A DNA stretch of 64,000 nt from Eggerthellaceae bacterium (lineage in GTDB: Bacteria > Actinomycetota > Coriobacteriia > Coriobacteriales > Eggerthellaceae): NCBI GenBank assembly GCA_017432445.1, contig JAFRJC010000087.1, forward strand, positions 18,483 through 82,482, written 5' to 3'. The notes beneath the pieces were generated by a model. The model was not told the origin of the DNA and ran no database searches. It saw nothing but the letters and a program-made list of their open reading frames with translations. A program made the position numbers and the translations under genes. This document shows, one piece after another, positions 51,001 to 64,000 of the stretch; within the stretch, counting starts at the first letter, position 1; each line of letters opens with the position of its first letter.

Positions 51001-53508
51001 CGTGTACGTATACGTGGTGGCAGTCTTGCCCTTCAGCTGCACGTACGAGCCATCGACCAGGCCGTAATACGTGGTCGATGTATTGGTTGAATCCGTGGGA
51101 GTGTAGGTGTTGCCCTTTTTCGTGTAGCGTGTACCGGTGTAGGTGACCTCGGTCTTCCAGAGCCAGCTGCCCGTCTCGTAGTAGTAGCTGTACGCCGTCT
51201 GTGACGTGCGCGAAAGCTCCACGTACTCGCCATTAACGTAGCCGTACTGCGTACCAGAGGTCGAAGTTGTGGAGGTGTAGGTATAGCCGGTCTCGCCGAT
51301 GCCCTTGAAGGTCATCGTGATCAGGTCGCGGTCGTAGTATACGTTGAGCACGGTGGAGCCGTCGGCAGCCACCGTCGCCTGGGAGTCGGTCTTGGCGCTG
51401 TTCAGGTGGAAGCCCTGGTATTTTTTCGCAAGATCCGCATCGGTGGGCACCACGACCTCGTCGGTGTAGGAGCTGCGCTGCGCCGATTCCTTGTAGTCGT
51501 AGGTCTTGTCAGCGTCGGCGGCGTCCTTGTCGTCGCTGACGCGCTGCTGCCAGAAGATCACGGTATAAGCTGCGCTCGCCTTCTTCCAGCCAGCGTAGGC
51601 CGTTGTCTTGGTGTTGTAGGCGCGCGTGAAGTCGAAGGTCTGCGTGCACGCCGCATCCGCGTACCAGCCAGTGAAATTGTAGCCGGCGCGTTGCGGGTCG
51701 GCTGGACGCGTGGGAGATTCGTCAAAGCCCACGTACTCGGGAGCCGTGTAGCTGGCGCCGCCGCCCGCGCCTCCGTCGTTCTCGTCGAAGTACAGCCAAT
51801 AAGCCTTGCCGAACACGGGATACAGCGTCGTGTCGTCAGATAGCGTCAGGTTCTCGCCAGCCGGGAACTGCACTTCGGTTGCCGCGGGGTCTTCCGTCCA
51901 GCCCAGGAAGCGCTCGTCATCGTTGACCGAGGTGGCAGAATGGACGCCCACGGCGGCTACGGCCTCTGCAGCTCCCTTTTCCGCCGTTGCCTTCACGTTG
52001 GTAAGTACGGGCCATTCGGCGTCTGCGCCGGCACGCCCGTTCATGAGCGTCGCGTAGAACACGGTGTTGATCTCGCCCACCACGTCGATGGTCGCGTTGC
52101 GCTCGATGGTTTCGACCTTGCCGAACTGCACTGCATCGCTCGTGCCGCGCACGTACCAACCCGAGAACTCCTCATGCTCGGCCAGCTCGGGAACGGGCGG
52201 CCTTACCAAGGTGTCGCCTTCCTTCACGATCTGGGTTGCAGGCTCTCCGTTCACCAGATACTCGCTGGTGCTGCCGGCGGCATCCGTCAGGAAGAAGCGA
52301 TAGGTTGAGCGATACGAGGCGATAAGCTCCACCTCATCGATGAGCACGGCCTCCTCGTCTTCAGCGGGTTGCTCCACTTCGGGCGCCTCGCCCTCGATTA
52401 TCACGATGGCATACACCGAGAACTCGTCGCTGGTAAACGAAATCGAGTTCTGCGCGGTGCCCGACGCCCCCGAGCCCACTACATCAGCAGCGCCGCCATC
52501 GGCCACATGCACCACGGCCACGTCCTGCTCGTCGCTGCCGTTCGCCGCCGCGATATCGGAAGCAGCCATGGTCACCTGGATGTCTGTCGCTGGCTCCACC
52601 TCGTGGGAGACGCCGTTTTCGTCTGTATAGGTGAAGGTGATGTCAACCGCCTTCACGGCCACGGCGCTCGCGTTCACCGCGTCTTCGACGGCGTCGATGA
52701 CCTGGGCGGCGGAAACCGGACTCACGTGCATCTGCGTACCGGCGGGAAACGCCCCCTCGGGCGCGCGGACGCTCACCGTCACGCCGTTCGCGCTGCCCTT
52801 GAAGGTCTGCGCGGGCATGTCCTTGGCCTTCTCGGCTTCGTCTTCCTGCTCGTCCCCCGTCACCAGGAACGTGCTTTCGGCAGCCTCGTCGCCGTTCTCG
52901 ACTGTTTCGTTGGTCTCATCACCCGTGAATAAGACGTCTTGCCCCTCATCGGCTGTTTCTTCGGGCTGTTCGGCTTCGGTCGACTCGCCCGCCTCGGGCT
53001 CGCCTTCTTGCTCGTCGACCACATTAGAGTCTTGCCCGCTTTCCTGGCTCGTCTCCGCTTCAGGCCCCTCGACCTGCGCAGCCTCGTCTTCGACGACGCT
53101 CTGTTCGGAGACCTGCTGTTCGACAGGTGCCTCTTCCTCGTCTCCAGAAAGCTGGATGGCTAGCGCATCCTGCTCCTGCGGCACCGGCTGCTTCGCGACC
53201 TCGACCTTTGGCTTGTTCGCCTCGGCCTCCTCTTCGGCGGCCTTCTTCGCCGCCTCCTCTTGTGCGGCAGCTTCGGCCGCCGCATCGCCCGCGACCGCCC
53301 AGCTGATCGCAGCTACGTTCCACGTCATCAGCGACAGGCATATGACCAGCAAGATGGCGATGACCTTCCCCTCGGGAGTCTTCACGCCATCCATGATTCG
53401 ATTGACGAGGCCCTTCTGCATGATTCCTACCGTTCTCCTAGGTTTTGGCGGCTTGTCCGCCAGCCTTTGCAGCACCCTGCCCTCACTGCCTTTCGGGTGT
53501 TTGGGCAT
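36034..53508 (-). CDS. giant (5,824 aa) cell-surface adhesin: N-terminal TM/signal, acidic spacer, Listeria-Bacteroides repeats, ~45 MBG-type repeats, MucBP-like domain, 3-TM C-terminal tail
   Basis: Single uninterrupted 17,475-nt ORF. A likelier start is the ATG at 53421 (MQKGLVNRI...), which is preceded by AGGAGAA. See the repeat features. The MucBP-like segment is YTLTIEYRYENGDQAA...INGYQPD. No LPXTG is present. Confidence 0.9.
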   Translation of the reverse strand: MPKHPKGSEGRVLQRLADKPPKPRRTVGIMQKGLVNRIMDGVKTPEGKVIAILLVICLSLMTWNVAAISWAVAGDAAAEAAAQEEAAKKAAEEEAEANKPKVEVAKQPVPQEQDALAIQLSGDEEEAPVEQQVSEQSVVEDEAAQVEGPEAETSQESGQDSNVVDEQEGEPEAGESTEAEQPEETADEGQDVLFTGDETNETVENGDEAAESTFLVTGDEQEDEAEKAKDMPAQTFKGSANGVTVSVRAPEGAFPAGTQMHVSPVSAAQVIDAVEDAVNASAVAVKAVDITFTYTDENGVSHEVEPATDIQVTMAASDIAAANGSDEQDVAVVHVADGGAADVVGSGASGTAQNSISFTSDEFSVYAIVIIEGEAPEVEQPAEDEEAVLIDEVELIASYRSTYRFFLTDAAGSTSEYLVNGEPATQIVKEGDTLVRPPVPELAEHEEFSGWYVRGTSDAVQFGKVETIERNATIDVVGEINTVFYATLMNGRAGADAEWPVLTNVKATAEKGAAEAVAAVGVHSATSVNDDERFLGWTEDPAATEVQFPAGENLTLSDDTTLYPVFGKAYWLYFDENDGGAGGGASYTAPEYVGFDESPTRPADPQRAGYNFTGWYADAACTQTFDFTRAYNTKTTAYAGWKKASAAYTVIFWQQRVSDDKDAADADKTYDYKESAQRSSYTDEVVVPTDADLAKKYQGFHLNSAKTDSQATVAADGSTVLNVYYDRDLITMTFKGIGETGYTYTSTTSTSGTQYGYVNGEYVELSRTSQTAYSYYYETGSWLWKTEVTYTGTRYTKKGNTYTPTDSTNTSTTYYGLVDGSYVQLKGKTATTYTYTYNGAPYDGVRYTRGSQEARLIISGLYGQTLSRYGYSWPEGTWKYSSSGMTFLGEFILPDSDGYMTSITFETNGAVGGTFNFYLQNADGSYPEEPSDRGYASSSSGKFTFTEKYNGFKVAEYQSNNSSGTSGSWSTAKSGNNANYSSPLGIRYQRQSYDIDFRNGSSGSIGTVSRLFEQSLSGVQAPAAPAFPGNANEASMHEFVGWFADPECTTYVSFGNPISDDLRAELESDWNVHSFTTYEAMPANNLVVYAGWMKKWFHVTLDEAGGTLPQGQVDDFWVQYGDAIAGSSLMQAVREGYTLTGWNVDAADGVPWNFDAGVQGDLHLVARWTTGEDVSVVYDANEGEGAPSDYALYTDGAKVTAKDAPTPPQGKVFVGWRVVRVDGKQGALCYPGQTFTVNQDCIVRGEQGSSVHLIAEYVTYDVTAQISYSPNGGNGTIPSQTIPVNKTSTLSLGDELSREGYTLVGWSLSPGDDNRVSFKLGGAVTVDKVDEESNVLYAVWAKNVTITATGANARVAYDGKAKVNDEPAMSFTVAGEKVDELPEGISYSISGRASGVNAGTYDDELSVSVGSYDTNRYYVTTHASNGRLTVTKPTVNLTVTGHVSSVPYDAQEHSVSGYDVMADNVAFEVADLQFSGVAEAARTDAGATEMGLEASQFSLADTSNFELGEVTVVDGRQEVTPAKVQVNIVGATGTVTYSGAEQSVEGYTATPSDTAYTEADFTFTGNAKAAGTQAGVYTMGLDASQFTNKNDNYDPTFNIVTDGSLTITPIDEVVVTITGDGKIATYDGNEHAASGYTFTASDPAYTEADFAFTGSAEVAATDAGYAPMGLSPEQFENKNESFAKVTFVVTDGYVDIAKAQAIVTIKGDFPEAVTYDGQEHVAEGYTAISSSPAFDVERDLVAKKDASQMRVAKTDAGTYAMGLTEADFANSNSGNVDVAFVVQDGGLVINRITETVVVTVVGAIEAVDYDGVEHSASGFTVQASNPLYRTQADETGVLDYAYSGSSAVKGTNAGTYPMGLARSGFANLNQNFTDVKFEVTDGELTIRKLSVNVAITGNSATREYTGAEQSVEGFDVKCSSELYTRDDFTVNGEVKAARTDAGTTAMGLSHDRLVNLNNNFDVVFSVTDGSLTITPVQKMVVVSVKGNSQTLVYNGTSQKVEGYTVTGISDARYKESYFAFDGSEVASGIDVGSYPMSLAAEQFKNLSDNFAWVEFLVQDGGLEIVPADVTVKVVGQQVTTVYDGQEHVASGFTTFESGSSLYDAASWTTFASAGGEEEQMPSVALVDAGTENMGLTSERFENTNPNFNVTYDVTDGFVTVLPLKVGVSVDGHVGVAPYDGKAHVVEGWDAQADSELFDVADITFTGKASASQTDVGTAYMSLAADQFGCDNENFDVAFAVASDGYSQVTPADEVVVTIIGHNATGAYDGEAHAVSGYDVLISSDVYTEADFTGPEQQAATASQTDAGTAYMGLSADQFANANANFSKVTFEVTDGYQTVTKRPVVVAVTGNTAVHDYDACEHVAEGFEVDIQDDLYTTDDFTAPDRAKASVALVHAGTKAMGLSADQFTNKNDNFAPVFTVTDGWVSVSPIAVTVQIEGACAENDYDALEHVVSGYTARASVNEGLAEGSQPLFDIAANVTFTGEARAARLKAGTTKMGLSAEMFEVADNPDFSSVTFDVADGYQIIRPVRVEVAITGATSTVAFDGQEHAVDGYDIVADVNRGRADDRLVFDPSLVRYEGTPHAARTDAGTTEMGLSADKFTCSDTVNYSAVTFTVTDGYQTVEPIAATVSIVGARSTADYDGDAHSVEGYTASITPSLYTEADFVFSGEAVAARTDAGTTYMGLSADQFANTNANFSDVVFDVVDGYQTVTKRSVAVSIVGEKLSAPYSGKEQSVEGFKASTADSLYDVDEFVQFAGEAVARGTDAGSYPMKLSVGQFANTSNNFDVAFDVVDGGLTIVSADQVIVTVTGKRASGTYTGRPLTATGYDVSISDERYKAEDFSFSGTATATRTDAGTTQMGLAASQFTNLDPVNFPDVVFVVEDGFVEVARATANVNVKGHTDQVVYDRAAHTVSGYDVTIESSTGAYGESDFELAADADPSVTGTDAGEYPMGLTEGTFGPGAATSQFANTNQNYDVVFQVVDGRLTVTKQKAVVTIAGAVLNVAYDREEHVVSGYTVQSSNPAFDVETDLVARVAPDDAKAAGVNAGTYAMGLVEGDFQNANKANVDVELRLTDGRLVISPVTNRVVVNIVGDAKTFAYDGLEHAASGFEVSANNALYRVDASEGATDFSFTDDAAVKSTNAGFFAMGISADDFQNANPNFENVTFKVTDGSLRINPAQVKVSVAGGVLETVYSGRTQAAEGYTLSSDSELYRQDDVAFSGNATVTAVDAGTYAMGLTSDQFANSNPNFNVTFEVKDGCLSIAPLEVNVSVIGHTGVNAYDGTEHSTSGYDVEASSPLYKASFLAHDGVAYAARTDAGTTDMGLTSDQFANSNPNFSVTAINVTDGYQQVTPADEVVVTITGHVVKADYDGLEHVARGYDVAISNPLYKAADFIFTGEAQAALTDAGTASMGLTAEQFSNINTNFENVEFKVEDGSVTVNPITAVVTIRGVNSTTTYDSTEHEVEGYTATSSSPLYAVGADAADFTFTGEAKAARTDAGTTYMGLAADQFANDNPNFENVTFRVVDGYQTVEPATAQVVITGHSAVCDYDGAEHSVEGFDAEISDELYNEDDFTFTGEAKAARTDAGTTHMGLAPEQFANANPNFANVTFRVVDGFQTVVPINATVTIVGATTTVDYDGATHMARGFTATADVNGSAGEAASAARPLYDVVNDVRFDGKAQAERADAGTTYMGLAPEQFANVNPNFADVTFVVADGYARVNPLVVKVSIAGATATKSYSGSEQKVEGYIASADTSLYDVDANVGFAGDATVQGTNAGLYPMGLSPADFTNGNENFDVSFLVTDGWLSIAPAGQVVVNVVGNSATGTYTGQALEAQGYTLQFSDWRYTASNITFTGDAKVSRTDAGRESMGLAADQFANDDRVNFPDVVFAVADGFVEVAPATAVVTVEGSRLSTTYDGSEHGVEGYDTSITSSTGLYAESNFHLAEGVGASAAGTNAGTYPMGLAEGTFGPGESGPFVNDDANYDVTFIVSDGWLAIGKARATVTVTGKTLACSYDGAEHAAVGYTAQSSNALYRVEPVEADEAAGTPAAGADFAYSGPLAASGVDAGSYPMCLDSAQFENVNPNFDDVEFIVVDGGLTIAPAAVTVTIVGNTATRSYTGEEQQVEGYRLTTTNSLYNSDYVLFEGEATARGENARARYAMGLSAEQFANVNPNFDVAFEVQDGWLAISPIDAVVTITGNHDAVTYDGAEHSAKGYEAHFSTPLYTADDFEFAGTSEVARTDAGTSYMGLAPEQFANVNPNFDHVEFRVADGYLTIVPAGDVVVTITGRNGLFSYDGAEHLAEGFDAEISDPLYTADDFAFAGGASAARTDAGTSYMGLVANQFSNTNPNFENVTFKVVDGYLTVAPINVSVSVTGSIDKATYDGIEHSVSGFTATSSTPLYTASDFVFTGTSEVARTDAGTSYMGLAPDQFANANPNFAEVMFSVVDGYQTVIPTTAQVVIVGHSTTATYDGEAHVAEGYEANISGSLYTADDFTFLGSDKVVAVGAGTYPMGLSADQFANTNPNFENVVFSVTDGGLRVDPLAVQVRVVGTRAAVSYTGSEQSVEGYEASADSELYDVARGVAFSGAARASGVRAGDYPMGLAASQFANTDPNFDVSFDVADGQLSIAPAGGVVVYITGHEASRVYDGEEFVVEGYDVQASDELYSSSNIEFTGEARAALTDAGTAEMGLAAEQFANTNPDFSDVRFVVADGRARVTPAPATVEVAGGVAEVEYDGTEQRVEGFELSSGSALYDLGSVAFSGEAAAARTDVGTTNMGLSADQFANTDPNFDVSFEVADGHLRVTPVAERVVVRIAGATASGTYCGTERSVSGYEVLEVSNPLYAPSDVALVGADRAAGTNVGTYPMGLSAGSFANQNANFADVAFEVEDGSLQITPAAVTVSVEGAHDALVYDGKEHAVSGYALAASSDLYDARASTSFTPASGAVLVGGEVAAVRTQAGTTNMGLAAEQFANTDPNFDVEYVVSDGYLSIAPAGGVVVRITGHTAEAVYDGDEHAAEGYDFEASDPLYTADDFAFTGGASAARTDAGTSYMGLSPEQFSNASGDFEDVVFDVVDGYVAVGRASATVTVKGNTATAVYDGAEHSVSGYTATSSTPLYAVEGDAAGFEFTGSAAAARTDVGTTNMGLAASQFANADPNFEGVVFEVEDGYQRITPNGEVVVKVAGHSDEAVYDGEEHSVSGYDFEASNPLYTADDFAFTGEAKAARTDAGTTPMGLSADQFANTNPNFENVVFEVADGGLKVNPVRVTVYVAGSSAEIDYDGEEHEISGYELSLGEPVGMRVASDATSRYDLSSVSYTGNAKAARTDVGSTPLVFEAGDFANSDTNYDVTFAIADGNLKVNAIPATVHIAGNVEAAEYDGTEHIAKGYKVKSVSSVGNLYTEDDFAFSGEAAAARTDVGTTNMGLSADQFANTNPNFNNVTFAIADGSIQVTKRSVQLVSASDSKVYDGAPLVRHEVEGDEGFVEGENVGYFFSGSQTEVGTSENTFSYVRTDALENNYNVSESFGTLTVTESPSGAEQVEPDAGQLAYTLTIEYRYENGDQAASAHVEQLAEGVRFEVVSPEINGYQPDYRSLVGAMPAGDLKIVVIYTAARPVQAAQPAKATEPASSGGTPEVSERDTAPVFSRMGEVVVDDGVPTVRTIEDDEGTALTDGSEGSWSLFDVVATVLAVLVALVLAVGLFGRKRRDGDDGNGPDGEDAALRVAEHETAADNERNDDARAFDRHRGLRILALAIGVVAIVLLFVTQDFTQTMALFDRWSVLFAIICIAQIVVAFLARKKRKDDDGEGDEEGAGSAQVQAA
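36903..49482 (-). repeat. coding tandem array of ~45-46 MBG (YGX-type) domain repeats, ~91 aa each
   Basis: Counted by eye from the recurring unit V(T/S)(I/V)xGxxxxxxYDGxEHxVxGYxxxxSxxLYxxxDFxFxGxAxAxxTDAGTxxMGLxxxQFxNxNxNFxxVxFxVxDGxLxIxP. Confidence 0.8.
49483..52185 (-). repeat. ~7 Listeria-Bacteroides (Flg_new / InlB B-repeat-like) repeats
   Basis: Recurring (G)Y.F.GW motifs: EFSGWYV, FLGWTED, GYNFTGWYADAACTQTFDF, FVGWFADPECT, GYTLTGWNVD, VFVGWRV, GYTLVGWSLS, with ...LYAVW ends. Boundaries are approximate. Confidence 0.65.
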
Positions 53509-53904: not shown

Positions 53905-54984
53905 TTAGAAGGCGATGCCCTCGAGGGCAAGCCGACGCTCGAGCGCTTCTTCGTGGATGCTGAAGCGCAAGGCCGTCTCGCCGGTGATGCGGCCTTCCTT
54001 CGCAAGCTGGAAAAGGCTCTGGTCCATAGTGCGCATGCCGGCGGCACCGCCCGCCGCGATGACCGAGTCGATCTGGTAGGTCTTCTCCTCGCGGATGAGA
54101 TTGCGGATAGCCGCATTGGAGATCATGATCTCGAACGCAGGGACAAGCCCGCCGTCAATCGTCGGCACGAGCTGCTGGCAGACGATGGCCTGCAGTACAA
54201 GCGAGAGCTGTATGCGGATCTGGCGCTGCTGCTCTGCGGGGAACGTGTCGATGATGCGGTCCACCGTACCCGAAGCGCTGGTGGTGTGCAGCGTGCTGAA
54301 CAGCAGCTGGGCCATTTCGGCAGCGGTCATCGCCGTGGCTACGGTCTCGGCGTCGCGCATTTCGCCCAGGAAGATGATGTCAGGGGACTCGCGCAAAGCC
54401 GAGCGCAGGGCCTCGTCGTATGTGGCCACGTCGGTAGGGATCTCGCGCTGCGTCACGATGCAGCTTCCGTGTCTGTGCACGTACTCGATCGGGTCTTCCA
54501 TGGTGATGATATGTCCCGAGCGCTCGTGGTTGAGCCGGTCGATGATGCAGTTCAGCGTCGTGGTCTTGCCGGACCCCGCCGGACCGGTGACCAGCACCAG
54601 GCCCTTCTGGAGCTTGCTCAGGCACAGCACGTCTTCGCCGATCTCGAAATCGGCCGGATCGGGCAGGCCAAACGGGATCACGCGGATGACGGCCGAGAGC
54701 GACCCGCGCTGGCGAAACACGTTCGCGCGGAAGCGGCCGATTCCGCCGATGGCGAACGAGAAGTCCTCGTCATGGTTCACGTTTCTCAGCATCAGCTCGA
54801 TGTCGCGGTTGGCCAGGCCGTAGATGGCCTCGATGACCTCGCGTGTCTGCGCGGGCTTCAGCGCTTCGCCTTCGGTACGCACGAGCTGGCCCAACGCCGA
54901 GTACGCAATGGGCATGCCGGCCTCGATGTAGATGTCGGAGGCCTTGTTGTCGATCATCTGCTTGAGCAACGGCTCCAGTTCCAT
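53905..54984 (-). CDS. pilT: PilT-family type IV pilus retraction-type ATPase
   Basis: 359 aa. Motifs: ASDIYIEAG, Walker A GPAGSGKTT, Asp box ITMEDPIEY, Walker B DIIFLGEMRD, His box STLHT and the PilT signature AIRNLIRE. Confidence 0.9.
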   Translation of the reverse strand: MELEPLLKQMIDNKASDIYIEAGMPIAYSALGQLVRTEGEALKPAQTREVIEAIYGLANRDIELMLRNVNHDEDFSFAIGGIGRFRANVFRQRGSLSAVIRVIPFGLPDPADFEIGEDVLCLSKLQKGLVLVTGPAGSGKTTTLNCIIDRLNHERSGHIITMEDPIEYVHRHGSCIVTQREIPTDVATYDEALRSALRESPDIIFLGEMRDAETVATAMTAAEMAQLLFSTLHTTSASGTVDRIIDTFPAEQQRQIRIQLSLVLQAIVCQQLVPTIDGGLVPAFEIMISNAAIRNLIREEKTYQIDSVIAAGGAAGMRTMDQSLFQLAKEGRITGETALRFSIHEEALERRLALEGIAF

Positions 54985-55051
54985 GGCTTCGATCCTTTCG
55001 TCATCGGGATCGCTTTCCCGCAGGCGATCGGTCGCTTGCGGGAAAGAGATC

Positions 55052-55600
55052 CTAGTCCACTATCAGCAGCTGTCCTTCCGGCGGCTCCTCGTTTTGAACC
55101 GCAGTCATCTTCCATTTGTCGACGCGGTACGTGCCGTTGTCACGCACTACGAGCACGATGTTGAGCAAGCGGCCGTTGTCGCAGGCGAACTCGGCGGTTA
55201 TCTGCTGCCCGTCCACCGAGGCCGAAGCCCTCACCTTTCCACCCGCCGCCGCGCGCGCATCGGCGCACAGCTTGTCGATCGCGCCTTGCACCGCGCGTAT
55301 GCCCTCCTGGCCCGCATCATCTGCAGACCCCGCCGAGCGCGCCTCGGCCAGCAGGGCGTCGGTCCCCGCGACGAACTCCTGGGCTGCACGCTCGTCGAGG
55401 TACAGCTCGGTCATGGCCTGCGCCTGGCGCTGGGACATGACAAGGGATGCGTTTGCCGTGGAAAGAGACAGCACGGCGAGCACGGCAAGGGAGATGATCA
55501 CCACCAACGCGAACACCGAGATGGAGCCGATGCGCACGCGCTGCGGCCGACCGCCGGAAACCTGGGGCAAGGTACCCGAGTTGAGCTGGAACTTCGCCAT
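55052..55600 (-). CDS. single-pass membrane protein, ComGG/PilX-like minor pseudopilin candidate
   Basis: N-terminal hydrophobic helix (IGSISVFALVVIISLAVLAVLSL) followed by TELYLDERAAQEFV, which resembles the post-helix segment of ComGG/PilX. Starts 3 nt after the upstream stop. Confidence 0.5.
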   Translation of the reverse strand: MAKFQLNSGTLPQVSGGRPQRVRIGSISVFALVVIISLAVLAVLSLSTANASLVMSQRQAQAMTELYLDERAAQEFVAGTDALLAEARSAGSADDAGQEGIRAVQGAIDKLCADARAAAGGKVRASASVDGQQITAEFACDNGRLLNIVLVVRDNGTYRVDKWKMTAVQNEEPPEGQLLIVD

Positions 55601-55603
55601 CGT

Positions 55604-56062
55604 CTACGCCCCGCTCTCGTACTTGGCCGTCTGGACGGTGTAAAGCGGCTCGACAGCCACGCCCGCTTGCGCGGTCTCGGCTTCGCTTGCGCTCCCGTCG
55701 GCATCCGAATCGACGCTTTCGGTTCCGTACACGCTTATGGTGGCGTAGTAGATGACGCCTCCCGTACGCCTCTCGGGCGTGACCTGGCACACCACGCGTA
55801 AATCGCCTTCCATGAACTCGCTTTTCACGCCAGTCGGGTCGGCGCAGAACAGCTCGGCCGTGGCCGTGGCGGCGGCCACGGCGTCAGTGAGGCTGCGGCT
55901 GGCGTTGGCGCGTTCGGCAGACTCGGCGAACAGCTGGGTGAACACGGCCAGCGAAGCCATGATGATCACGAGCAACAGCATCGCCTCCACGAGGAAGGCG
56001 GTTCCCGACCAGCGGCTATGCAGCGCGGCGGACGTGCGCTTCGTGGGCAGCTCGAAACTCAT
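55604..56062 (-). CDS. prepilin-like (pseudopilin) protein candidate
   Basis: RWSG-TAFLVEAMLLLVIIMASLAVF is a class-III-signal-like G/xxFLVE + helix motif, offset by one residue from canonical GFTLIE. An ATGA overlap links it to the upstream gene. Confidence 0.5.
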   Translation of the reverse strand: MSFELPTKRTSAALHSRWSGTAFLVEAMLLLVIIMASLAVFTQLFAESAERANASRSLTDAVAAATATAELFCADPTGVKSEFMEGDLRVVCQVTPERRTGGVIYYATISVYGTESVDSDADGSASEAETAQAGVAVEPLYTVQTAKYESGA

Positions 56063-56574
56063 ACGGCTCCCCCCTGCGTGCTGCGCAGGGCGACTTCGAG
56101 AGTGCCCTTGTCGGTGGTCATGGTCAGAAGCTCGCCGTCGAAGGCGAACTCGAAGGCATCCGAGCGGAACAGCGGCGTTGCGGAAGTGGGATTGTAATCG
56201 CGCCCGGAGATAGCGTATTCGGTGAAGATGGTTCCCTTGTACTGGTACACACGCGTCTCGAAGGTGCCGTACTCGAGCGATTCCACCAGCACGAGCGCCG
56301 GCCCTTCCGGACCCTCGCCCCGCTCTACCGCATACACCGAGTCGTTCACGTGCACGGTGTTGGCCAGAAGACCCGATTGCAGATGCACGTCATCGGTGTA
56401 TGAGTGGGTCTGCACGACAGCGCTGTAGATGCCCGCGCCAGCCGCCAACCCTCCCATGAGCGCGATGAAGAACACTGCCATGAGCACCAGCATGAACAGC
56501 TGGGAGGGCGCACGATGCACCTCGGGCTTTTTCGACCTCTCGAAGGCAGAGACCATGGCGTAGTTGATGTTCAT
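56059..56574 (-). CDS. single-pass membrane protein (minor pseudopilin / assembly protein candidate)
   Basis: 171 aa with one N-terminal TM (LFMLVLMAVFFIALMGGLAAGAGIY). ATGA overlaps at both ends (56059-62 and 56571-74). Confidence 0.5.
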   Translation of the reverse strand: MNINYAMVSAFERSKKPEVHRAPSQLFMLVLMAVFFIALMGGLAAGAGIYSAVVQTHSYTDDVHLQSGLLANTVHVNDSVYAVERGEGPEGPALVLVESLEYGTFETRVYQYKGTIFTEYAISGRDYNPTSATPLFRSDAFEFAFDGELLTMTTDKGTLEVALRSTQGGAV

Positions 56575-56897
56575 CGCGGCCTCACCACCACCGACGGAGG
56601 CACGTTATCGCCAAGCCACTCGTAGTTCACGACGTAGTCGTTATGGTTGATGACGAGCCCGTATTCCTCTTCCAAGTGCGAGAGCATCGAAGGATAGGAG
56701 CCCTCAATCGCGCAGCACTGCACGGCCGCGGCCACCACGGCTTGCCGTACCGAGGCCGTGGCCTGGTCACGCGCTATCGAGCGCGACACCGTCACCGCAA
56801 AGACCACGTTGATCACGATCAGCACCGCCAAGATGGCGTAGATGATCCGCATGCGCCTTCGCCGCGCCAGCTCCTCGTATGTCAGCTCGTGGTACAA
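56571..56897 (-). CDS. small single-pass membrane protein
   Basis: 108 aa. RRRRMRIIYAILAVLIVINVVFAV is followed by a soluble domain. Start is TTG at 56897 or ATG at 56852. Confidence 0.45.
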   Translation of the reverse strand: MYHELTYEELARRRRMRIIYAILAVLIVINVVFAVTVSRSIARDQATASVRQAVVAAAVQCCAIEGSYPSMLSHLEEEYGLVINHNDYVVNYEWLGDNVPPSVVVRPR

Positions 56898-56957
56898 CCT
56901 ACCTCTTCCCCTCAGAAACGTGGCAGCTTACTCCGTGTAAAGTGCCACATTTTGCGT

Positions 56958-58010
56958 TTAGCCAATTGAGCCCATGATTCCCACCAGCGGCAACATGACG
57001 GCGATGAGCGTCACGCCGATGGAAATCGTCAGGAAAACAGCTAGCACAGGCTCGACGTGGTCGAGCGATTCGTCGATCTGAAGCACGGCATCGTCGAAGA
57101 ACGTCTGGGAGAGCTGCGCGAGCGTTTCGTCGGCGCTTCCCGCGCGCATTCCCACGTTCAGCATACGGGCGTACAGCGGTTCGAACACGCCGTTCTCGCT
57201 TATGGCCTGGGCGAGGCTGCGTGGGTTGTCCAGATCGACCATGCTGTCGCGGGCAGTCTCCAGGCGCCCGCGCAATTTGGCGTGGTCGACCGTCTTGATG
57301 GCTTTCGTCATGGCCTCCTCGTTGGTCACGCCCGACGACACGAGGGTCGCGAGCGCCGCCGTGAAGCGCGACAACGCCAGCTGGTACATGGCGCGGCTGG
57401 TCATTGGAAGCTTCTCGAACAAGCGCATGACCCGGTTGCGCCCGGTTTCGCTGCGCGACGAGAATGACAGGTACAGCGCTACGGCCGCCACGACTACTGT
57501 GATGACGAGGGCCACCCAGCCTATGGCCGTGGACAGGCCGATGGAGGCGAAGGACTGGGAGGCGAGCGAGCCCGCCATGTTCTCGTAGACGCCGGCGAAA
57601 ACCGGCAGGATGAACAGTACCGTGAACAGCAAGATCAGAGCCATGATCACCAGGAGCGCAGCCGGGTATCCCACCGACGAGCGCAGTTTGGTGAACATGC
57701 GGTCCTCTTCGTCGTAGTAGAGCTCCAGGTTGCGCAATACCTGCTCCAGATGGCCCGACTCTTCGCCGGTCTTGGCCATCTCCACCGCATAGGCGGGGAA
57801 CCCACCCGTGACATCCATCGACTGCCAGAAGGGCTCGCCGGCGACGAGGTGGAGGTACATGTCGTTGCACACTTCCTGGAACCGCGACCGCTCGCGGTTT
57901 TCGGACAACATCAGCACTGCTTCCTCGTTCTGGATGCCTGCCGACAACATCGTCGCCACGCTTCCGCAGAAGGCGGAAATGGCGCTACTCTCAAGCAGTT
58001 TCTGTGCCAT
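56958..58010 (-). CDS. type II secretion system F / PilC-family platform protein
   Basis: 350 aa with two T2SSF halves (FPAYAVEMAKTGEESGHLEQVL and FEPLYARMLNVGMRAGSADETL) and 3 TMs. Confidence 0.85.
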   Translation of the reverse strand: MAQKLLESSAISAFCGSVATMLSAGIQNEEAVLMLSENRERSRFQEVCNDMYLHLVAGEPFWQSMDVTGGFPAYAVEMAKTGEESGHLEQVLRNLELYYDEEDRMFTKLRSSVGYPAALLVIMALILLFTVLFILPVFAGVYENMAGSLASQSFASIGLSTAIGWVALVITVVVAAVALYLSFSSRSETGRNRVMRLFEKLPMTSRAMYQLALSRFTAALATLVSSGVTNEEAMTKAIKTVDHAKLRGRLETARDSMVDLDNPRSLAQAISENGVFEPLYARMLNVGMRAGSADETLAQLSQTFFDDAVLQIDESLDHVEPVLAVFLTISIGVTLIAVMLPLVGIMGSIG

Positions 58011-58055: not shown

Positions 58056-59036
58056 CTAATACGTATAGCGGTCCGTATAGGCGCTCGCGTCGCCAACATA
58101 TTTCGTCGCCCCAGTCGAGGCGAAAGTCACGTCGCAACGCGACCACGTGTTGGGGTCGACGGTGAACGCCGCGCAATGCCAGGTTCCGTCGATGTAAACC
58201 ATGGTCCACGCGTGGTAGACCTCATCCTTTCCCACGTAGCCTGTCATGATCTTGGCGGGGATGCCCATGGATCGCAGCATCGCCACCGAAAGCGACGCAT
58301 AGTCAAAGCAGATGCCGCGGCCGGTGGTAAGCGTTTCGTCCGGATCGGGCACGTAGCCGCTCTTCTCGGCCAGCTCACGGGCTTTGTCATTGTCATAGGT
58401 GACGTTAGCGGCAACGAATTCGCAGATTGCCTTCACCGCCTCGGCTACGTTACCAGCCTTGCCGGTAAGCTCTCGCGCCTTGTCGACGCAAGCGCTCGAC
58501 GAGTTGTAGTTGCAATACATGTTCGAGATCAGGAAGGGCGCGAACTCGGATTCCAGGACCACGTCGGCCTCCGTTGCATACAGCTCCACGTAGTTGCTGC
58601 CCGATGTGTTCTGCATGATGCGGAACGTGTAATAGCCGTCGCCCATGTTGAGCGGGTAGACGGTTTGGGTGCCGTCGTTCGGCAAGTCGTAGTTGTAAGT
58701 CTGGTCGCCCTGATTCGCCTGGAACTTCAGCCGCGCGCTGCTAGTCGCCCGCGCCACGACGTAGCCGCCACTTACGTGTTCCACGTTGATATCGGGTTCC
58801 TCACTGGAAGCAGGCGAGAGCATGGGCACGATCACGCCGTCGGGCTGAGTGAAGTCGGCTCCGCTCACTTCGTCGCCTCCGCCGCCGAAGGGCAAGCTAA
58901 GCGCTTCGGCTTTCCCCGAGCTACTGGACCCTTCGCTCGAGCCGCTACAAGCTGGTATGAACGCAATGACCAGCGCAACGGAAAAGACTAAAAGCCCCTT
59001 GAGCGCTATAGAAGCTATGCGTCCCCCGCGTTTCAC
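58056..59036 (-). CDS. transglutaminase-like cysteine protease domain lipoprotein
   Basis: Lipobox AFIPAC/SGSS. Transglutaminase core GRGICFDYASLSVAMLRSMGIPAK...YHAWTMVYIDGTW...D (Cys-His-Asp). Confidence 0.8.
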   Translation of the reverse strand: MKRGGRIASIALKGLLVFSVALVIAFIPACSGSSEGSSSSGKAEALSLPFGGGGDEVSGADFTQPDGVIVPMLSPASSEEPDINVEHVSGGYVVARATSSARLKFQANQGDQTYNYDLPNDGTQTVYPLNMGDGYYTFRIMQNTSGSNYVELYATEADVVLESEFAPFLISNMYCNYNSSSACVDKARELTGKAGNVAEAVKAICEFVAANVTYDNDKARELAEKSGYVPDPDETLTTGRGICFDYASLSVAMLRSMGIPAKIMTGYVGKDEVYHAWTMVYIDGTWHCAAFTVDPNTWSRCDVTFASTGATKYVGDASAYTDRYTY

Positions 59037-59222
59037 CGATATCCGTTCTTCACGCGTCCTTCTGGCCGGGCATCATCATTTTGCCCGCAATGCCCTTCAT
59101 TATACAACCTTGCGAATTGGAATTATATGCAAGGTGATGTGGTAGTATTTGGTACGCTGTAAAGATAAACGATACGAAAGCCTCTGGGTTTCTATCGTTT
59201 GCGAATCGAAGGGTTGCTGGGA

Positions 59223-59942
59223 ATGATCGTCGCTTTACACGATGCTATCGCGCTCGTTGACGGCGATGTGCGGTCGGTTGTGCGCGAACGGGCGCAGGCT
59301 GCCGGGTTCGACCAGGTGGAGTTTACTCGCTTCGAAAGCGCCCTCGACCTCGTCGACCAGGTTGCGGACAAGGCCTCCGCACCCCTCGACCTAGTTCTAG
59401 TCCCCTACGAGCTACCAGGGCTTTCGGGAGTCCAGGCCATAGCAGAAGCTCGCAGCGTCCAGCCCGAGTTTTACGCAGTAGCCGTCGACGACGAGCCCGT
59501 TCATGCGGCTGAAGCCGCTCACGAAGGTTTTGAAGAATATCTGGTGCGACCGCTCGTCACTGCTGTTTTCGAGCTTGCCATGACAAGGGCCTTCGCGGCG
59601 CTGCGCGAGCTATACGACTCGTCGGCGCTGATCGAAACACGCAGCGGGGCTCGGCGCATCGCGCTCGACGACGTTACGTACTGCGAGACTTCGGGACATG
59701 ACCAGCTCGTGCATTTGCGCAACGGGCATGCCGTGGCGGGGCGCTACTCTTCTCAGGCGCTGTTCAATCTCTTGGCGGTCGACGACCGGTTCTTCAAGGT
59801 CGGAAGCTCCTATATCGTCAACCTACATGAGGTAAGCCGCTTGCATACGCCTTCGGGCGAGCTCGTACTTGCTGATGGAACACCGATTTCCGTTCCGCAG
59901 CGCCTTAGGAAGAATTTGGAGGAAACCCTGCTCAGCCAATGA
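59223..59942 (+). CDS. LytTR-family DNA-binding regulator with degenerate (pseudo-)receiver domain
   Basis: C-terminal LytTR domain (IALDDVTYCETSGHDQLVHL...FFKVGSSYIVNLHEV). The N-terminal REC-like fold has LDLVLVPYELPG, where a canonical receiver has DLVLLDIxMPG. ORF 59199..59942; the ATG at 59223 is preferred. Confidence 0.8.
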   Translation: MIVALHDAIALVDGDVRSVVRERAQAAGFDQVEFTRFESALDLVDQVADKASAPLDLVLVPYELPGLSGVQAIAEARSVQPEFYAVAVDDEPVHAAEAAHEGFEEYLVRPLVTAVFELAMTRAFAALRELYDSSALIETRSGARRIALDDVTYCETSGHDQLVHLRNGHAVAGRYSSQALFNLLAVDDRFFKVGSSYIVNLHEVSRLHTPSGELVLADGTPISVPQRLRKNLEETLLSQ

Positions 59943-60053
59943 TTTGAGGGATACTAACGAAACGCGAAAATGTGCCGTTTTTCAGCAATTACGACAAGTC
60001 GCGAAGCAACCGTCGCTTTTGGCTTAGGATGCGCATGAAAGCCCGTTCCACGA

Positions 60054-60494
60054 TTGGAACGCTACAGGAGGAACGTGATCGGCATCAATCAAACATACGA
60101 AGCGCAGAAGACGCGTAAACCAGGCCTGAGGACGTTTCTTGCAGCAATTGCCGCCGTCCTGTTGGCGATAACCCTCACATTTGGATTCGGCGCCCTCCAA
60201 AACGACGTTCCGCAGGCATATGCGACGATTTACCCTGCGGGGGAAAGCGCTCAAGTTGACGGTCAGGCAAGCGACGAATCCGCCGCAACCGAGGAGGAAG
60301 CTGCGGAGACCGAGATTCTCGATGACGAAGGAACGCCGCTTTCTTCGGGCCTCGGCGGAGGGGAACCCATTTCGGGTGGCGTAGGCTTCGTTCCTGTCGC
60401 CATCGTCGGCATCGCCGTCGTGGCGTTGTTCTTCCTCGTTCTCATGCGCAGGCTCAATAGCAACATCAAGGATATGAGCCGAATGTTCAAGTAG
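60054..60494 (+). CDS. small secreted acidic protein with adhesin-like C-terminal anchor motif
   Basis: N-terminal TM/signal (AYA/TI), an acidic spacer, then ILDDEGTPLSSG...VPVAIVGIAVVALFFLVLMRR. Start is TTG at 60054 or GTG at 60075 (after AGGAGG). Confidence 0.55.
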   Translation: MERYRRNVIGINQTYEAQKTRKPGLRTFLAAIAAVLLAITLTFGFGALQNDVPQAYATIYPAGESAQVDGQASDESAATEEEAAETEILDDEGTPLSSGLGGGEPISGGVGFVPVAIVGIAVVALFFLVLMRRLNSNIKDMSRMFK

Positions 60495-60596: not shown

Positions 60597-61730
60597 TTAG
60601 ATCATGCTCATCTGGCCGAGCGTGACAACATACCACTTTTCCCAGCTCGAGCAGTATTTCTGGGCATTTGCGAGCGTGATGGTGTAGCCGTAACCGTCGG
60701 AAAGCCCGCGTACGTGCGTGTCAATCGCCGATTCCCACGAGCTCCACTCCCACGCCAGGCCCACAGGATCTACGTCCGCAGCGCCCCAGCCCCAGGCATT
60801 GTATGACCTCACGCAAAAGCGGCCTTTCGAACTCTCGATGTGTGCAATAGCCGGCGACCATCGCGGATCGACGCAATAGCGCCACGATGCCTGGGCGAAG
60901 GCTCTTCCAAGTCCGGCCATGGGAGACCCCGCAAGGTAGGCATCGATGCGCGGAGCCCATTCCGCCACGAACTCGCCCTCGGTCGCATACCAGTCGGCGC
61001 CATCGGCCACCCCAATTGCAGAGGGATCCTGCGCCAAGCATGCTGAGATTCCCTCATACTGCCGAGCGCTACGCGAATCCTGCGCCTCTCTCAGCGCGCT
61101 TTCAGCTTCGAAAAGACGTTCCTGAAGCTGTTCCTGGCTTTCTTCCAGCCTTTCCTTTTTGGCCTCGAGCTCGGCGCGTTCCTCTATCGTTTTGTTCAGC
61201 TCGCTTAGGCTCCGCTCGGTCACGGCATCGAGATACTCGCTCATCTTGATGAATTCCTCGAGGGAATCTGCCCTTAGCAACATCTCTATCGCCTGGTAGC
61301 CGTTGTTTTGGAGCTCAAATAGATAGCGGGCTGCCTTGTCTGCCTTCTGCTCCTTTTCGGCGATCTGCTCGTTGAGGCGCTTCTCCTTGACGCGGGCAAT
61401 CGTTTCCTCCCAGCCTCTGTCATCAGCAATCTCGAGCGCTTCCTCGTAACGCAGGGTTAGCTCCTCGATCTGAGAGGTGGGCGCCGCAAGGTGTGGCAAG
61501 ATAAGCACACTGTCTGCATACGCCAAACCCGTTTGCGCAGATGCGCAGGCGAAGGAGACAGCAAGGGCTGCAGCTAGCCTTGGAAGCGCGCGCGCACAGC
61601 CGGCACGTCTGCTAGTTGCAAATCGGGTATGAAGGATTGCCCTTTTCAAACGCCCTCCACCGCCTGCATATGCTCTCACGTATCGGCTGGTCTTTCCTGA
61701 ATTATGGCCGTTCAATCCTACTACATCCAT
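60597..61730 (-). CDS. PcsB-like secreted coiled-coil protein with C-terminal putative peptidoglycan hydrolase domain
   Basis: Signal peptide (AVSFACASAQTGLAYA/DS), a ~200-aa heptad-rich region, and a C-terminal ~130 aa with DPRWSPAIAHIESSKG...YNAWGWG. A GGAGG RBS lies before the ATG at 61730. Confidence 0.7.
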   Translation of the reverse strand: MDVVGLNGHNSGKTSRYVRAYAGGGGRLKRAILHTRFATSRRAGCARALPRLAAALAVSFACASAQTGLAYADSVLILPHLAAPTSQIEELTLRYEEALEIADDRGWEETIARVKEKRLNEQIAEKEQKADKAARYLFELQNNGYQAIEMLLRADSLEEFIKMSEYLDAVTERSLSELNKTIEERAELEAKKERLEESQEQLQERLFEAESALREAQDSRSARQYEGISACLAQDPSAIGVADGADWYATEGEFVAEWAPRIDAYLAGSPMAGLGRAFAQASWRYCVDPRWSPAIAHIESSKGRFCVRSYNAWGWGAADVDPVGLAWEWSSWESAIDTHVRGLSDGYGYTITLANAQKYCSSWEKWYVVTLGQMSMI

Positions 61731-62849: not shown

Positions 62850-64000
62850 CTAAATCGCGTTCATCTGCTCGAGGGTCCGGTTGTACCAAGCCTCCCAATT
62901 CGGGGGGCAGTACTTCTGGGCGGCTTCGATTGTAATCGTGTAACCGTAACCGCGCGCTAGGCCTGCAACGTGCGCGGGAATGGCCTCTTCCCACGAACCC
63001 CAGCTAGCGCTTCCCCAACCCCAGGCGTTGTAGGGATTGAAGCAGTTAGCGCCAAGCGAGCTTTCGGTGAACGCGATGGCGGGCGACCAGCGCGGATCCA
63101 CGCCGTAGTCCCAGGCTGCCTTCGCGAAGGTGGCACCCTGGCCAGACAAGGGCGAGCCCGCTAGATAACCGTCGATGCGGGCCGACCACTCGTTGATGAA
63201 CGCCGCTTGATCGGAGGTCCAGTCGGCGCCGTCTTCGGTAGGCTGCTCTAGCGCGGAGCCAGCTTGCTCTTCTTCGGCTGGCGCAGGCTCCTCTTGGGGG
63301 GCATTCTGGCTCGGCTCGTCTGCAGCCTCAGAAGCCGACCCTTCTTCGGGCTTGTCGGGCTCTTTCTGCTTCTCTGTTTCCTCTGCTTGGGCAGCCTCTT
63401 TTTCGGCGGCATCATCCTGAGCTGCCTTTGCTGCCTCTGCCGCTTCCGCTTCGGCTGCCGCTTGGGCGGCTGCTTCAGCTGCAGCAGCCTCCTCTGCCTG
63501 CCGGCGCGCTTCTTCCTGGGCCCGTTGCTGGGCTTCCAGTCGGGCTTCCTGGGCGGCCACGAGCGCTTCCTTGGCTTTTTTCTCCTGCTTTGCCGCACTG
63601 GAATGGGCTTTTTCCAGGGCAACTTGCCGCGTTTCCAGCTCATCTTGCATGTCGGCAAGCTTCTGTAGCTCTTGACCGTGCGAATCGCTTATACGGGTAA
63701 GGTATTCCAGATTCGCCAGGAAACCGTAGAAATCGTCGCTTTCCAGAAGCATTTGAAGCAAGCCTGCCCCCTGCTGCTGAATCTTGTAGAGCTCGCGCGC
63801 AGCCACGGCTCCCCGCTGCTGCTGCTGTGGGATCTCAGCCGAGAGCTCGTCGATGCGCACGGTGTTCTCCTGAATGTCGGCCTCGGCTTGTGCGAGCTTC
63901 TCGCGTGCCGAGTCGTATTCGGCAGCCGTGCGCTCCACTTCCTGCTGGAACTCGTCGGCGACAGGATACATGTCCAGATCTTCCGCCCAGGCAAACTTGG
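62850..64000 (-). CDS. second PcsB-like coiled-coil / C-terminal hydrolase-domain paralog (5' end outside the window)
   Basis: ORF 62850..63971 stays open in-frame to the window edge (...KFAWAEDLDMYPV). The C-terminus DPRWSPAIAFTESSLG...YNAWGWG...GYGYTITIEAAQKYC parallels that of 60597..61730. Confidence 0.7.
   Translation of the reverse strand, partial: KFAWAEDLDMYPVADEFQQEVERTAAEYDSAREKLAQAEADIQENTVRIDELSAEIPQQQQRGAVAARELYKIQQQGAGLLQMLLESDDFYGFLANLEYLTRISDSHGQELQKLADMQDELETRQVALEKAHSSAAKQEKKAKEALVAAQEARLEAQQRAQEEARRQAEEAAAAEAAAQAAAEAEAAEAAKAAQDDAAEKEAAQAEETEKQKEPDKPEEGSASEAADEPSQNAPQEEPAPAEEEQAGSALEQPTEDGADWTSDQAAFINEWSARIDGYLAGSPLSGQGATFAKAAWDYGVDPRWSPAIAFTESSLGANCFNPYNAWGWGSASWGSWEEAIPAHVAGLARGYGYTITIEAAQKYCPPNWEAWYNRTLEQMNAI

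Follow-up and report, generated by a model that had tools for sequence, protein, structure and literature searches.

In Pseudomonas, the giant adhesin LapA is released by the transglutaminase-fold protease LapG, whose target is an N-terminal di-alanine site. Many other surface proteins carry C-terminal sorting signals (LPXTG for sortase, PEP-CTERM for exosortase and GlyGly-CTERM for rhombosortase), in which a short motif lies just outside a membrane helix and recurs on many otherwise unrelated proteins of one genome. Transglutaminase-family peptidases have also been linked to archaeal type IV pilus loci (PMC4858521). At the level of regulation, LytTR regulatory systems (LRS) of the HdrRM/BrsRM type place a LytTR regulator without a phospho-acceptor just upstream of a small membrane inhibitor; the canonical regulators lack a receiver-like domain, and 9-bp direct repeats with a spacing of 12 bp are found at their operons (PMC6193735). 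Moreover, the Streptococcus gordonii two-component system SGO_1180 is cited in PMC11326707 as sensing a sortase C-peptide. Here we compare with these systems a stretch of 64,000 nucleotides from an Eggerthellaceae bacterium (assembly GCA_017432445.1, contig JAFRJC010000087.1; the whole stretch is hereafter the window), which encodes a small membrane protein and a 5824-residue surface adhesin sharing a 13-residue motif beside a membrane helix. The motif that they share is real and goes far beyond what chance would give. We tentatively favour a reading in which the small protein mimics a substrate, acts as membrane partner of the LytTR regulator encoded next to it and controls the neighbouring gene cluster. 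The window has a G+C content of 60%, and its sequence is present in gut metagenome DNA runs, many of them bovine. Coordinates are collected in Table 1.

An earlier note on this DNA had pointed to the pattern I.DDEGT.L..G, identical at 8 of 13 positions in the two proteins. This is literally correct: DDEGTxL occurs exactly twice in a six-frame translation of the window, once in the small open reading frame (ORF) and once in the adhesin. It was also right that both copies are preceded by acidic sequence and followed by a hydrophobic helix and Arg/Lys residues. The pairwise match is weak on its own, with about one chance occurrence of 8/13 expected, by our own estimate, between a 146-residue protein and an acidic protein of 5824 residues, and significance was reached only once relatives were included. 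BLASTP of the small protein against the adhesin did not report the motif pair, its best alignment (E 0.84) lying elsewhere. We define the FILTED preface as E-x-I-x-D-[DE]-x-[TV]-P-L-[AS]-x-G within about 20 residues upstream of a membrane helix. A matrix of 13 columns was built from 106 such sites in FILTED-anchored proteins, with the near-orthologue of the adhesin excluded, and 89,300 control windows were taken from the bodies of the same proteins. The preface of the small protein, EILDDEGTPLSSG, scores 25.2 bits, or 16.8 bits after dropping the two columns fixed by site picking; none of the 89,300 control windows scores as high on either the full or the reduced matrix. On this matrix, which was built without their family, the 14 homologues of the small protein all lie in the range 18-26.5 bits, and the copies in loci L012/13 (EIIEDEDTPLASA) and L021 (EAIDDEEVPMSSG) reach 28 and 25 bits. 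Moreover, hhalign aligned the small-protein family (A1) to a 36-sequence FILTED alignment (A4) with a probability of 81% and an E-value of 1.2e-5 over 23 columns. The aligned columns are the preface alone and end before the helix, and the residues invariant in the small family (P95, S97, S98 and G99) include the conserved Pro and Gly positions of the preface. Across about 0.6 Mb of related loci, matrix matches of at least 14 bits that have a transmembrane (TM) helix behind them are found only in FILTED-type proteins and the small family, the sole further site of that strength (16.4 bits, in a FILTED-type protein of L029) having no TM helix. The element shared by the small protein and the adhesin is the preface only. 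The larger cassette of motif, TM helix and basic cluster proposed in the earlier note is thus reduced to its first part: hhalign and the matrix uphold the motif, and the helices and basic parts, which are unrelated, could not be aligned.

A further preface-like sequence, AQLGEDGTALGKG (34224..34262, 14.3 bits), lies in a secreted LRR_5 and Big_2 protein just downstream of the adhesin (ORF 33591..35096, minus strand). It follows a Gly run and has no helix behind it, and its GTAL..G core is identical to that of the adhesin's copy. About two such matches per window are expected by chance, and the resemblance may be meaningless.

The adhesin comprises an N-terminal leader, YDG/MBG-type repeats, Flg_new-like repeats judged by eye, a MucBP-like region, the preface TIEDDEGTALTDG and a FILTED anchor. 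The NCBIfam model NF052597 ('FILTED domain-containing surface protein') matches residues 357-483 of its last 499 with 80.7 bits against a cut-off of 40. The preface lies 5 residues ahead of W-S-L-F-D, which is the canonical position in the family, and has Ala instead of the usual Pro (12.3 bits); DEKGT stands at the motif in a protein closely related to the adhesin C-terminus (89% identity over the 188-residue query). About 160 residues follow, with the three-helix FILTED domain and its F-V-T-Q-D-F loop between helices 2 and 3, so that the motif is not C-terminal in the adhesin as had been supposed. AlphaFold2 models the adhesin C-terminus as three membrane helices (mean pLDDT, the predicted local distance difference test score, 65) and the preface, with moderate confidence, as a coil that does not pack against the FILTED domain. 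In the same model a short beta-bridge joins the W-S at the start of TM1 to the P-M-x-x-F-D loop between TM2 and TM3, which suggests, again with moderate confidence, that the conserved outer-face elements of the domain touch each other.

A word-indexed homologue search with the adhesin C-terminus gave a single match, and an exhaustive phmmer search with its last 188 residues against 1.84 billion representatives (50% identity clusters) gave at least 1718 proteins at E<=1e-3, 226 of them at E<=1e-10. Their lengths run from 100 to more than 5400 residues, and without exception the FILTED match occupies the extreme C-terminus. In almost all of those parsed (30 read individually, and the best 150 of the 1718 listed), [ILV]-x-[DE]-[DE]-x-[TVN]-[PA]-[LM]-[AS]-x-G is found 5-12 residues before the first helix, which starts W-S-L-F-D-L or W-A-L-L-N-L. 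Among the 126 FILTED proteins whose upstream sequence was long enough, 68 match a strict regular expression, and an xPL[AS]-like core is present in nearly all. The preface is often a tandem duplicate, as in IPDDANPLAETIEDDGNPLANLGAWSLFDL, and one FILTED protein carries NIDDEGTPLADLG. These relatives bear out the suggestion of a cassette element that recurs on numerous surface proteins not otherwise related to each other. FILTED proteins are also encoded outside the transglutaminase module described below (L010, L011 and L060). Contig L011, from the same sample as L002 and of similar coverage, encodes two tandem FILTED proteins beside an ordinary LPSTG protein; the window has two preface carriers, both counts being per contig. 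FILTED-anchored proteins are a very large class of surface adhesins of gut Coriobacteriia and Clostridia, and we found no publication on the class, the FILTED domain or the preface. A distinctive N-terminal leader, L-x-R-I-M-x-G-x-x-T-P-E-G-K-[IV]-I-A-x-L-L...L-M-T-W-N...A-[FY]-A, is common to the adhesin (53359..53508, minus strand) and several FILTED proteins (P0028, P0029, P0035, P0043 and P0057; 4-5 of 76 full-length matches), and may be a specialised signal peptide that accompanies the FILTED anchor.

The small protein has a different anatomy. Its likely start is the GTG at 60075, because AGGAGG-aac-GTG is conserved there; the TTG at 60054, from which the earlier note had read 146 residues, is less likely. 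The N-terminal hydrophobic segment ends Q-A-Y-A↓T-I-Y-P-A, and the conserved A-Y-A↓T cleavage site would be a classical A-x-A site of signal peptidase. The ectodomain that follows is acidic, variable and about 50 residues long, and is of low complexity outside the motif and the conserved mature N-terminus (A)TIYPA. An invariant PLSSGLGGGEP block, with the Gly-rich spacer S-S-G-L-G-G-G-E-P, then leads to the membrane; a conserved spacer of 10 residues lies ahead of the helix. Behind the single helix stands a cytoplasmic tail in which R132, R133, M141, M144, F145 and K146 are invariant or nearly so, and of which distant copies retain KLNRNIxxMKxRF. We infer the topology of a type I membrane protein, with a signal peptide and a single membrane pass. 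The small protein has a single helix and none of the other FILTED features (no WSLFD/WALLN start, second or third helix, or F-I-L-T-E-D loop); it matched no family in Pfam or NCBIfam, and NF052597 gave no match to it at E<=0.1. Two other identities were considered and rejected. The family alignment has no conserved Gly or Glu+5 of a class III signal, which speaks against a type IV pilin or pseudopilin, and a decayed FILTED fragment is contradicted by a helix and tail that have no relation to FILTED and are kept in at least 17 sequence clusters. The family is narrow. A search of 5.8 billion sequences gave 14 homologue clusters, in all of which the motif is conserved, and 185,579 species genomes gave 3 loci, in metagenome-assembled genomes labelled Eggerthellaceae or Coriobacteriaceae. 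More copies lie on metagenome contigs (L007-L009, L012/13 and L021).

In all 12 loci that extend far enough (the window, L001-L009, L012/13 and L021) the small gene follows a LytTR gene on the same strand after a gap of about 130 bp, which carries promoter-like boxes of its own. The LytTR match of the regulator (PF04397; Table 1) is accompanied by a sub-threshold Response_reg match of 21.4 bits. When nine orthologues were aligned with CheY, the position of the phospho-acceptor Asp57 was Pro, Gly or Ala in 9/9, and Lys109 was not kept. As judged from its sequence, the regulator is thus a pseudo-receiver that cannot be phosphorylated, and control by a partner protein would be expected of a receiver without phospho-acceptor Asp. 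The LytTR and small gene pair is limited to the closest group, locus L016 having the neighbouring module without it. For the earlier idea of two substrates sharing one pathway, the side-by-side FILTED proteins of L011 are the expected pattern. Behind the small gene, three loci other than the window have a second pair (L002 10697..12061, L007 10639..12084 and L008 10521..11862), made of a two-helix membrane protein of about 190-210 residues (RRFYLS..W.YNHEIGYAPL..VIDQWKGTL) and a second LytTR regulator whose receiver, by eye in L002, also appears to lack the Asp. The pairing of a membrane protein with a pseudo-receiver LytTR regulator is therefore a theme of these loci.

The LytTR and small genes are divergent, in the window and L001-L009 alike, from an operon in which the genes for a transglutaminase-core lipoprotein, a GspF-like platform, four small proteins and a PilT-family ATPase follow one another on one strand. 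The N-terminus of the adhesin comes next after the PilT gene in the window, L001, L002, L008 and L009. The transglutaminase has Pfam matches to PF01841, PF04473 and PF13471 only. Its Cys243 (in GICFDYA), His275 and Asp283 are invariant, the Cys and His lying in motifs typical of the fold, and a lipobox-like ..PAC in the window corresponds to LSAC or LAAC in distant homologues. It is probably an active enzyme at the outer membrane face, where its lipoprotein signal would place it and where the motif lies. A metagenome scan with the transglutaminase alignment gave 47 loci. The gene order from transglutaminase to PilT is kept down to 37% transglutaminase identity, including on human-gut contigs of 56% G+C, in which a large Flg_new/MBG adhesin follows the ATPase. 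Those homologues of this adhesin that carry a source name are labelled Faecousia, Subdoligranulum or Clostridiales, and 108 of the best 120 end with a preface of 20-31 bits (for example EEIVDEETPLAMG), W-A-L-V-N and F-I-L-T-E-N/D; the remaining 12 appear truncated. Locus L059 has a complete block of transglutaminase, T2SSF, a 106-residue protein, DUF4860, two small genes, T2SSE, a BTAD/Trans_reg_C regulator, a 112-residue protein and a FILTED adhesin. The module and FILTED adhesins are syntenic in two phyla, represented by Coriobacteriia and Oscillospiraceae. In Oscillospiraceae they occur without the small protein, and a BTAD/Trans_reg_C regulator lies within the cluster instead. The earlier proposal of the transglutaminase as cognate enzyme gains from the two-phylum synteny, the invariant Cys and His and the lipoprotein signal; nothing in these data ties it to the motif more than to the pilus-like machine.

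Further observations concern the same loci. Directly upstream of the FILTED adhesin, even away from the module, L059 and L060 encode a conserved soluble protein of 112-117 residues (ILFRQN.SWQG.LR...FRSVLELL); the intervals L059 8087..9933, L060 9528..9881 and L030 14595..15824 relate to this protein and the BTAD/Trans_reg_C regulator taken together. A contig of 62% G+C (L029 2..9582) encodes, in order, two surface proteins with C-terminal helices, the first ending ..LPSPTG.. (sortase-like by eye), an ORF that is maybe signal-peptidase-I-like (also by eye), and a 1331-residue protein in which a preface of 23 bits precedes W-A-L-V-N-L. All of these lie immediately upstream of the transglutaminase/GspF/PilT module.

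Taken together, these data may point to a regulatory accessory. The small gene is always paired with LytTR and is found in far fewer lineages than the adhesin and transglutaminase module, which fits such an accessory better than the mere 'mini-substrate' of the earlier note, and the conserved cytoplasmic tail, as a sequence feature, points to a specific cytoplasmic contact. We therefore lean, tentatively, towards the small protein as the membrane partner of the LytTR regulator; the contact of its tail with the regulator, the mimicry and any cleavage are what we infer. Its ectodomain would mimic the juxtamembrane preface of the adhesin and would be bound or cut by whichever extracytoplasmic factor handles the adhesin motif, the transglutaminase-like lipoprotein and the PilT/GspF machine being candidates. 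Such engagement would alter how the tail holds or modulates the regulator, which in turn would tune transcription of the divergent transglutaminase, pilus-like and adhesin cluster. The arrangement resembles the membrane inhibitors of LytTR systems and anti-sigma factors. As in LRS, a non-phosphorylatable LytTR regulator is encoded directly upstream of a small non-enzymatic membrane protein, and the scan of neighbouring genes gave no kinase domain. Unlike the LRS proteins, the membrane protein here has no DUF3021 or DUF2154, a single helix once the signal peptide is removed and an adhesin-like ectodomain, so that an inhibitory role would be by analogy only. SGO_1180, as far as it is described in the source cited above, offers a second likeness in that the membrane-embedded anchor end of an adhesin is monitored to regulate adhesin genes; there, however, a histidine kinase detects a real cleavage remnant, whereas a dedicated look-alike and a LytTR pseudo-receiver regulator are proposed here.

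Several points weigh against a regulatory partner. A tail of 15 residues is short for sequestering a regulator of 240 residues. The regulator keeps a degenerate receiver-like domain, unlike the LRS regulators of S. mutans. No direct repeat of 9-10 nucleotides of the LRS or AgrA type (at most 1 mismatch, 11-13 bp spacing) was found in the three intergenic regions, a search that does not exclude degenerate repeats, and the 10-mers shared by these regions were chance-level matches only. The small gene also has its own conserved -10 box and CAATTnCGnCAA element, and so may be the target of the regulator instead of its partner. Finally, co-occurrence cannot separate a LytTR partner from a component of the adhesin machinery, because all these genes travel together in the clade with the small gene.

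Three other explanations have to be set against the regulatory partner. The coincidental resemblance of two acidic juxtamembrane stretches, with the small ORF an unrelated membrane protein, would agree with the lack of a significant BLASTP match, with 8/13 identity being about the chance level, with the 12.3 bits of the adhesin's own copy and with the helix-less match in the LRR protein, itself within chance. It is nevertheless very improbable and largely refuted by the matrix, the control windows and hhalign: the small family scores well on a matrix built without it, no control window scores as high, the alignment is significant, the invariant P-L-x-x-G columns of the family are the conserved columns of the FILTED preface, and the neighbourhood with a FILTED adhesin is conserved. 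Somewhat unlikely, in our view, is that the preface is a passive or ligand-binding juxtamembrane element, neither cut nor sensed, such as an acidic stalk that binds cations or the cell wall, or the place where the pilus-like machine docks, and that the small protein is a co-regulated structural accessory of the adhesin or pilus-like apparatus, for instance an anchor or spacer subunit. An acidic and frequently tandem motif, modelled as an unpacked coil, would suit such a role, as would a small gene with its own conserved promoter-like elements and an ectodomain of low-complexity acidic sequence apart from the motif and the mature N-terminus. A structural accessory leaves unexplained, however, both the strict conservation of the cytoplasmic tail and the invariable pairing with the pseudo-receiver LytTR regulator, and there are other lineages whose module and adhesin function in its absence.

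A sorting signal, as the earlier note had envisaged, is unlikely. Here preface, helix and basic residues would form a sortase-like signal, the small protein would be a minimal substrate, and the transglutaminase would cleave or cross-link both proteins at the motif. The preface does resemble the C-terminal sorting signals in lying directly outside a membrane helix and in recurring on hundreds of surface proteins that are unrelated to each other, and there are tandem FILTED paralogues on one contig; the transglutaminase gene shares synteny with FILTED adhesins in both Coriobacteriia and Oscillospiraceae and probably encodes an active enzyme on the outer membrane face; and LapG and LapA provide a precedent, in that the gene of a giant repeat adhesin lies close to that of a cysteine enzyme of the transglutaminase fold, active outside the cytoplasmic membrane. 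The preface differs, however, in not being at the extreme C-terminus and in not being tripartite, the motif being followed in adhesins by about 160 residues with a three-TM domain and the helix of the small protein by its conserved tail; it is often in tandem, as would sooner be expected of a binding element than of a single scissile site; the Pro that is usual in the motif is missing from the adhesin's copy; and FILTED proteins are also encoded away from the module. It has no known sorting enzyme either, and the one candidate, the transglutaminase-like lipoprotein, falls in no known family of such enzymes. A Pfam scan of 37 window proteins, which covered those at 1-28.5 kb, the genes at 55-62 kb, the C-terminus of the adhesin and the LRR protein, gave no domain of a sortase, exosortase, rhomboid or prepilin peptidase, and neither GlyGly-CTERM nor the other NCBIfam sorting-signal models matched; a MYXO-CTERM-family match of 12.9 bits against a cut-off of 200 was dismissed as noise. 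The enzyme itself lies outside the LapG/BTLCP family, with 23 bits against a cut-off of 320 for the LapG model NF045674. It is of the PF01841/PF04473 type and a lipoprotein of a Gram-positive, encoded in an operon with PilT and GspF, and its putative target would be a C-terminal acidic motif, not an N-terminal di-alanine site. The archaeal pilus-linked peptidases, which suggest a pilin-directed role (PMC4858521), are alike in that a surface transglutaminase-like peptidase, in our case also PF04473, is encoded with a secretion ATPase and platform; the system here differs in being bacterial, in its PilT-family ATPase and in having a FILTED adhesin as conserved neighbour.

A wider proposal, which we regard as doubtful, is that the preface is the recognition element of an undescribed surface-protein handling system of Gram-positive gut anaerobes. 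A PilT/GspF-type machine and a transglutaminase-fold lipoprotein would install, trim or release FILTED adhesins, and the small protein would be a decoy substrate, added by some Eggerthellaceae, that reports the activity of the system to the LytTR pseudo-receiver regulator. The FILTED domain is already known as a curated NCBIfam model, and the general design of a regulator with a membrane partner is known too. Three findings appear to be new: a preface that can be defined as a motif, the synteny in two phyla between FILTED adhesins and the PilT/GspF/transglutaminase operon, and a small preface-only protein paired with a pseudo-receiver LytTR regulator. If the module does prove to be dedicated to adhesin handling, it would constitute a categorically new system. 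With about 90 mature residues, the small protein is a compact experimental handle on what binds or cuts the motif and on the control of adhesin display, and both motif handling and the regulation of display are hard to approach with proteins of 5000 residues.

Table 1. Features of the window (positions count from its first nucleotide; scores are those of the models named).
Feature	Position	Strand	Remarks
Small preface-bearing membrane protein gene	60075..60494	+	139 aa from GTG 60075
Preface of small protein, EILDDEGTPLSSG	60312..60350	+	25.2 bits
Single TM helix of small protein, VGFVPVAIVGIAVVALFFLVLM	60381..60446	+	Hydropathy scan; conserved in family; not aligned to FILTED TM1 by hhalign
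Conserved cytoplasmic tail, RRLNSNIKDMSRMFK	60447..60491	+	15 residues, RRLNxNIKDMxRMFK
LytTR-family regulator with pseudo-receiver N-terminal domain	59223..59942	+	PF04397 36.7 bits; directly upstream of small gene
Divergent promoter region, transglutaminase operon versus LytTR gene	59037..59222	.	Two conserved blocks; consensus resemblance only
Transglutaminase-core lipoprotein, first gene of divergent operon	58056..59036	-	PF01841 83.5 bits; PF04473 53.1 bits
Type IV filament-like module	53905..58010	-	GspF/PilC-like platform, four small proteins, PilT-family ATPase
GspF/PilC-like platform	56958..58010	-	GspF 162.8 bits, below cut-off
Small N-terminally anchored protein	56571..56897	-	
Small N-terminally anchored protein, DUF4860	56059..56574	-	DUF4860 39 bits
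Small N-terminally anchored protein	55604..56062	-	
Small N-terminally anchored protein	55052..55600	-	
PilT-family ATPase	53905..54984	-	TIGR01420 PilT/PilU 387.6 bits, cut-off 319.1
Surface adhesin, 5824 aa	36034..53508	-	ORF; weak YDG and Muc_B2 Pfam matches
Preface of adhesin, TIEDDEGTALTDG, Ala variant	36478..36516 (aa 5665-5677)	-	12.3 bits
FILTED domain	36085..36465	-	TM1, acidic/basic cytoplasmic linker, TM2, outer loop FVTQDFTQTMALFDRWS, TM3

The intergenic DNA carries conserved elements on both sides of the LytTR gene. Alignment of orthologous loci shows two back-to-back -10-like boxes in the divergent region: ATTATACA, the reverse complement of TGTATAAT, reads as an extended -10 facing the minus-strand transglutaminase operon, and TGGTAGTAT, about 30 bp away, faces lytTR, both by consensus resemblance only. 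Between the LytTR and small genes (59943..60074), the conserved element CAATTnCGnCAA stands about 30 nt before a TAGGAT/TAGTAT -10-like box of the small gene. From their conservation, the blocks in both regions may be binding sites of the regulator. A generic promoter and terminator scan gave nothing informative.

Lastly, two features of the surrounding DNA deserve mention. Beyond the small gene, two paralogous secreted proteins (60597..61730 and 62850..63971, both on the minus strand) lie on either side of a gene with a TP_methylase domain. Both combine a PcsB-like coiled coil with a C-terminal region of about 130 residues that is conserved and rich in Trp (DPRWSPAIA..ESS.G...NAWGWG); they are probably cell-wall hydrolase-like, and the coiled-coil pair is kept beside the small gene in L001 and L005. 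Elsewhere in the window, a 356-residue ORF (30285..31355, plus strand) has a Cys-rich, zinc-finger-like N-terminal start and a third-position G+C of 0.90, against about 0.65-0.87 for most other genes, and looks like an insertion-sequence transposase.

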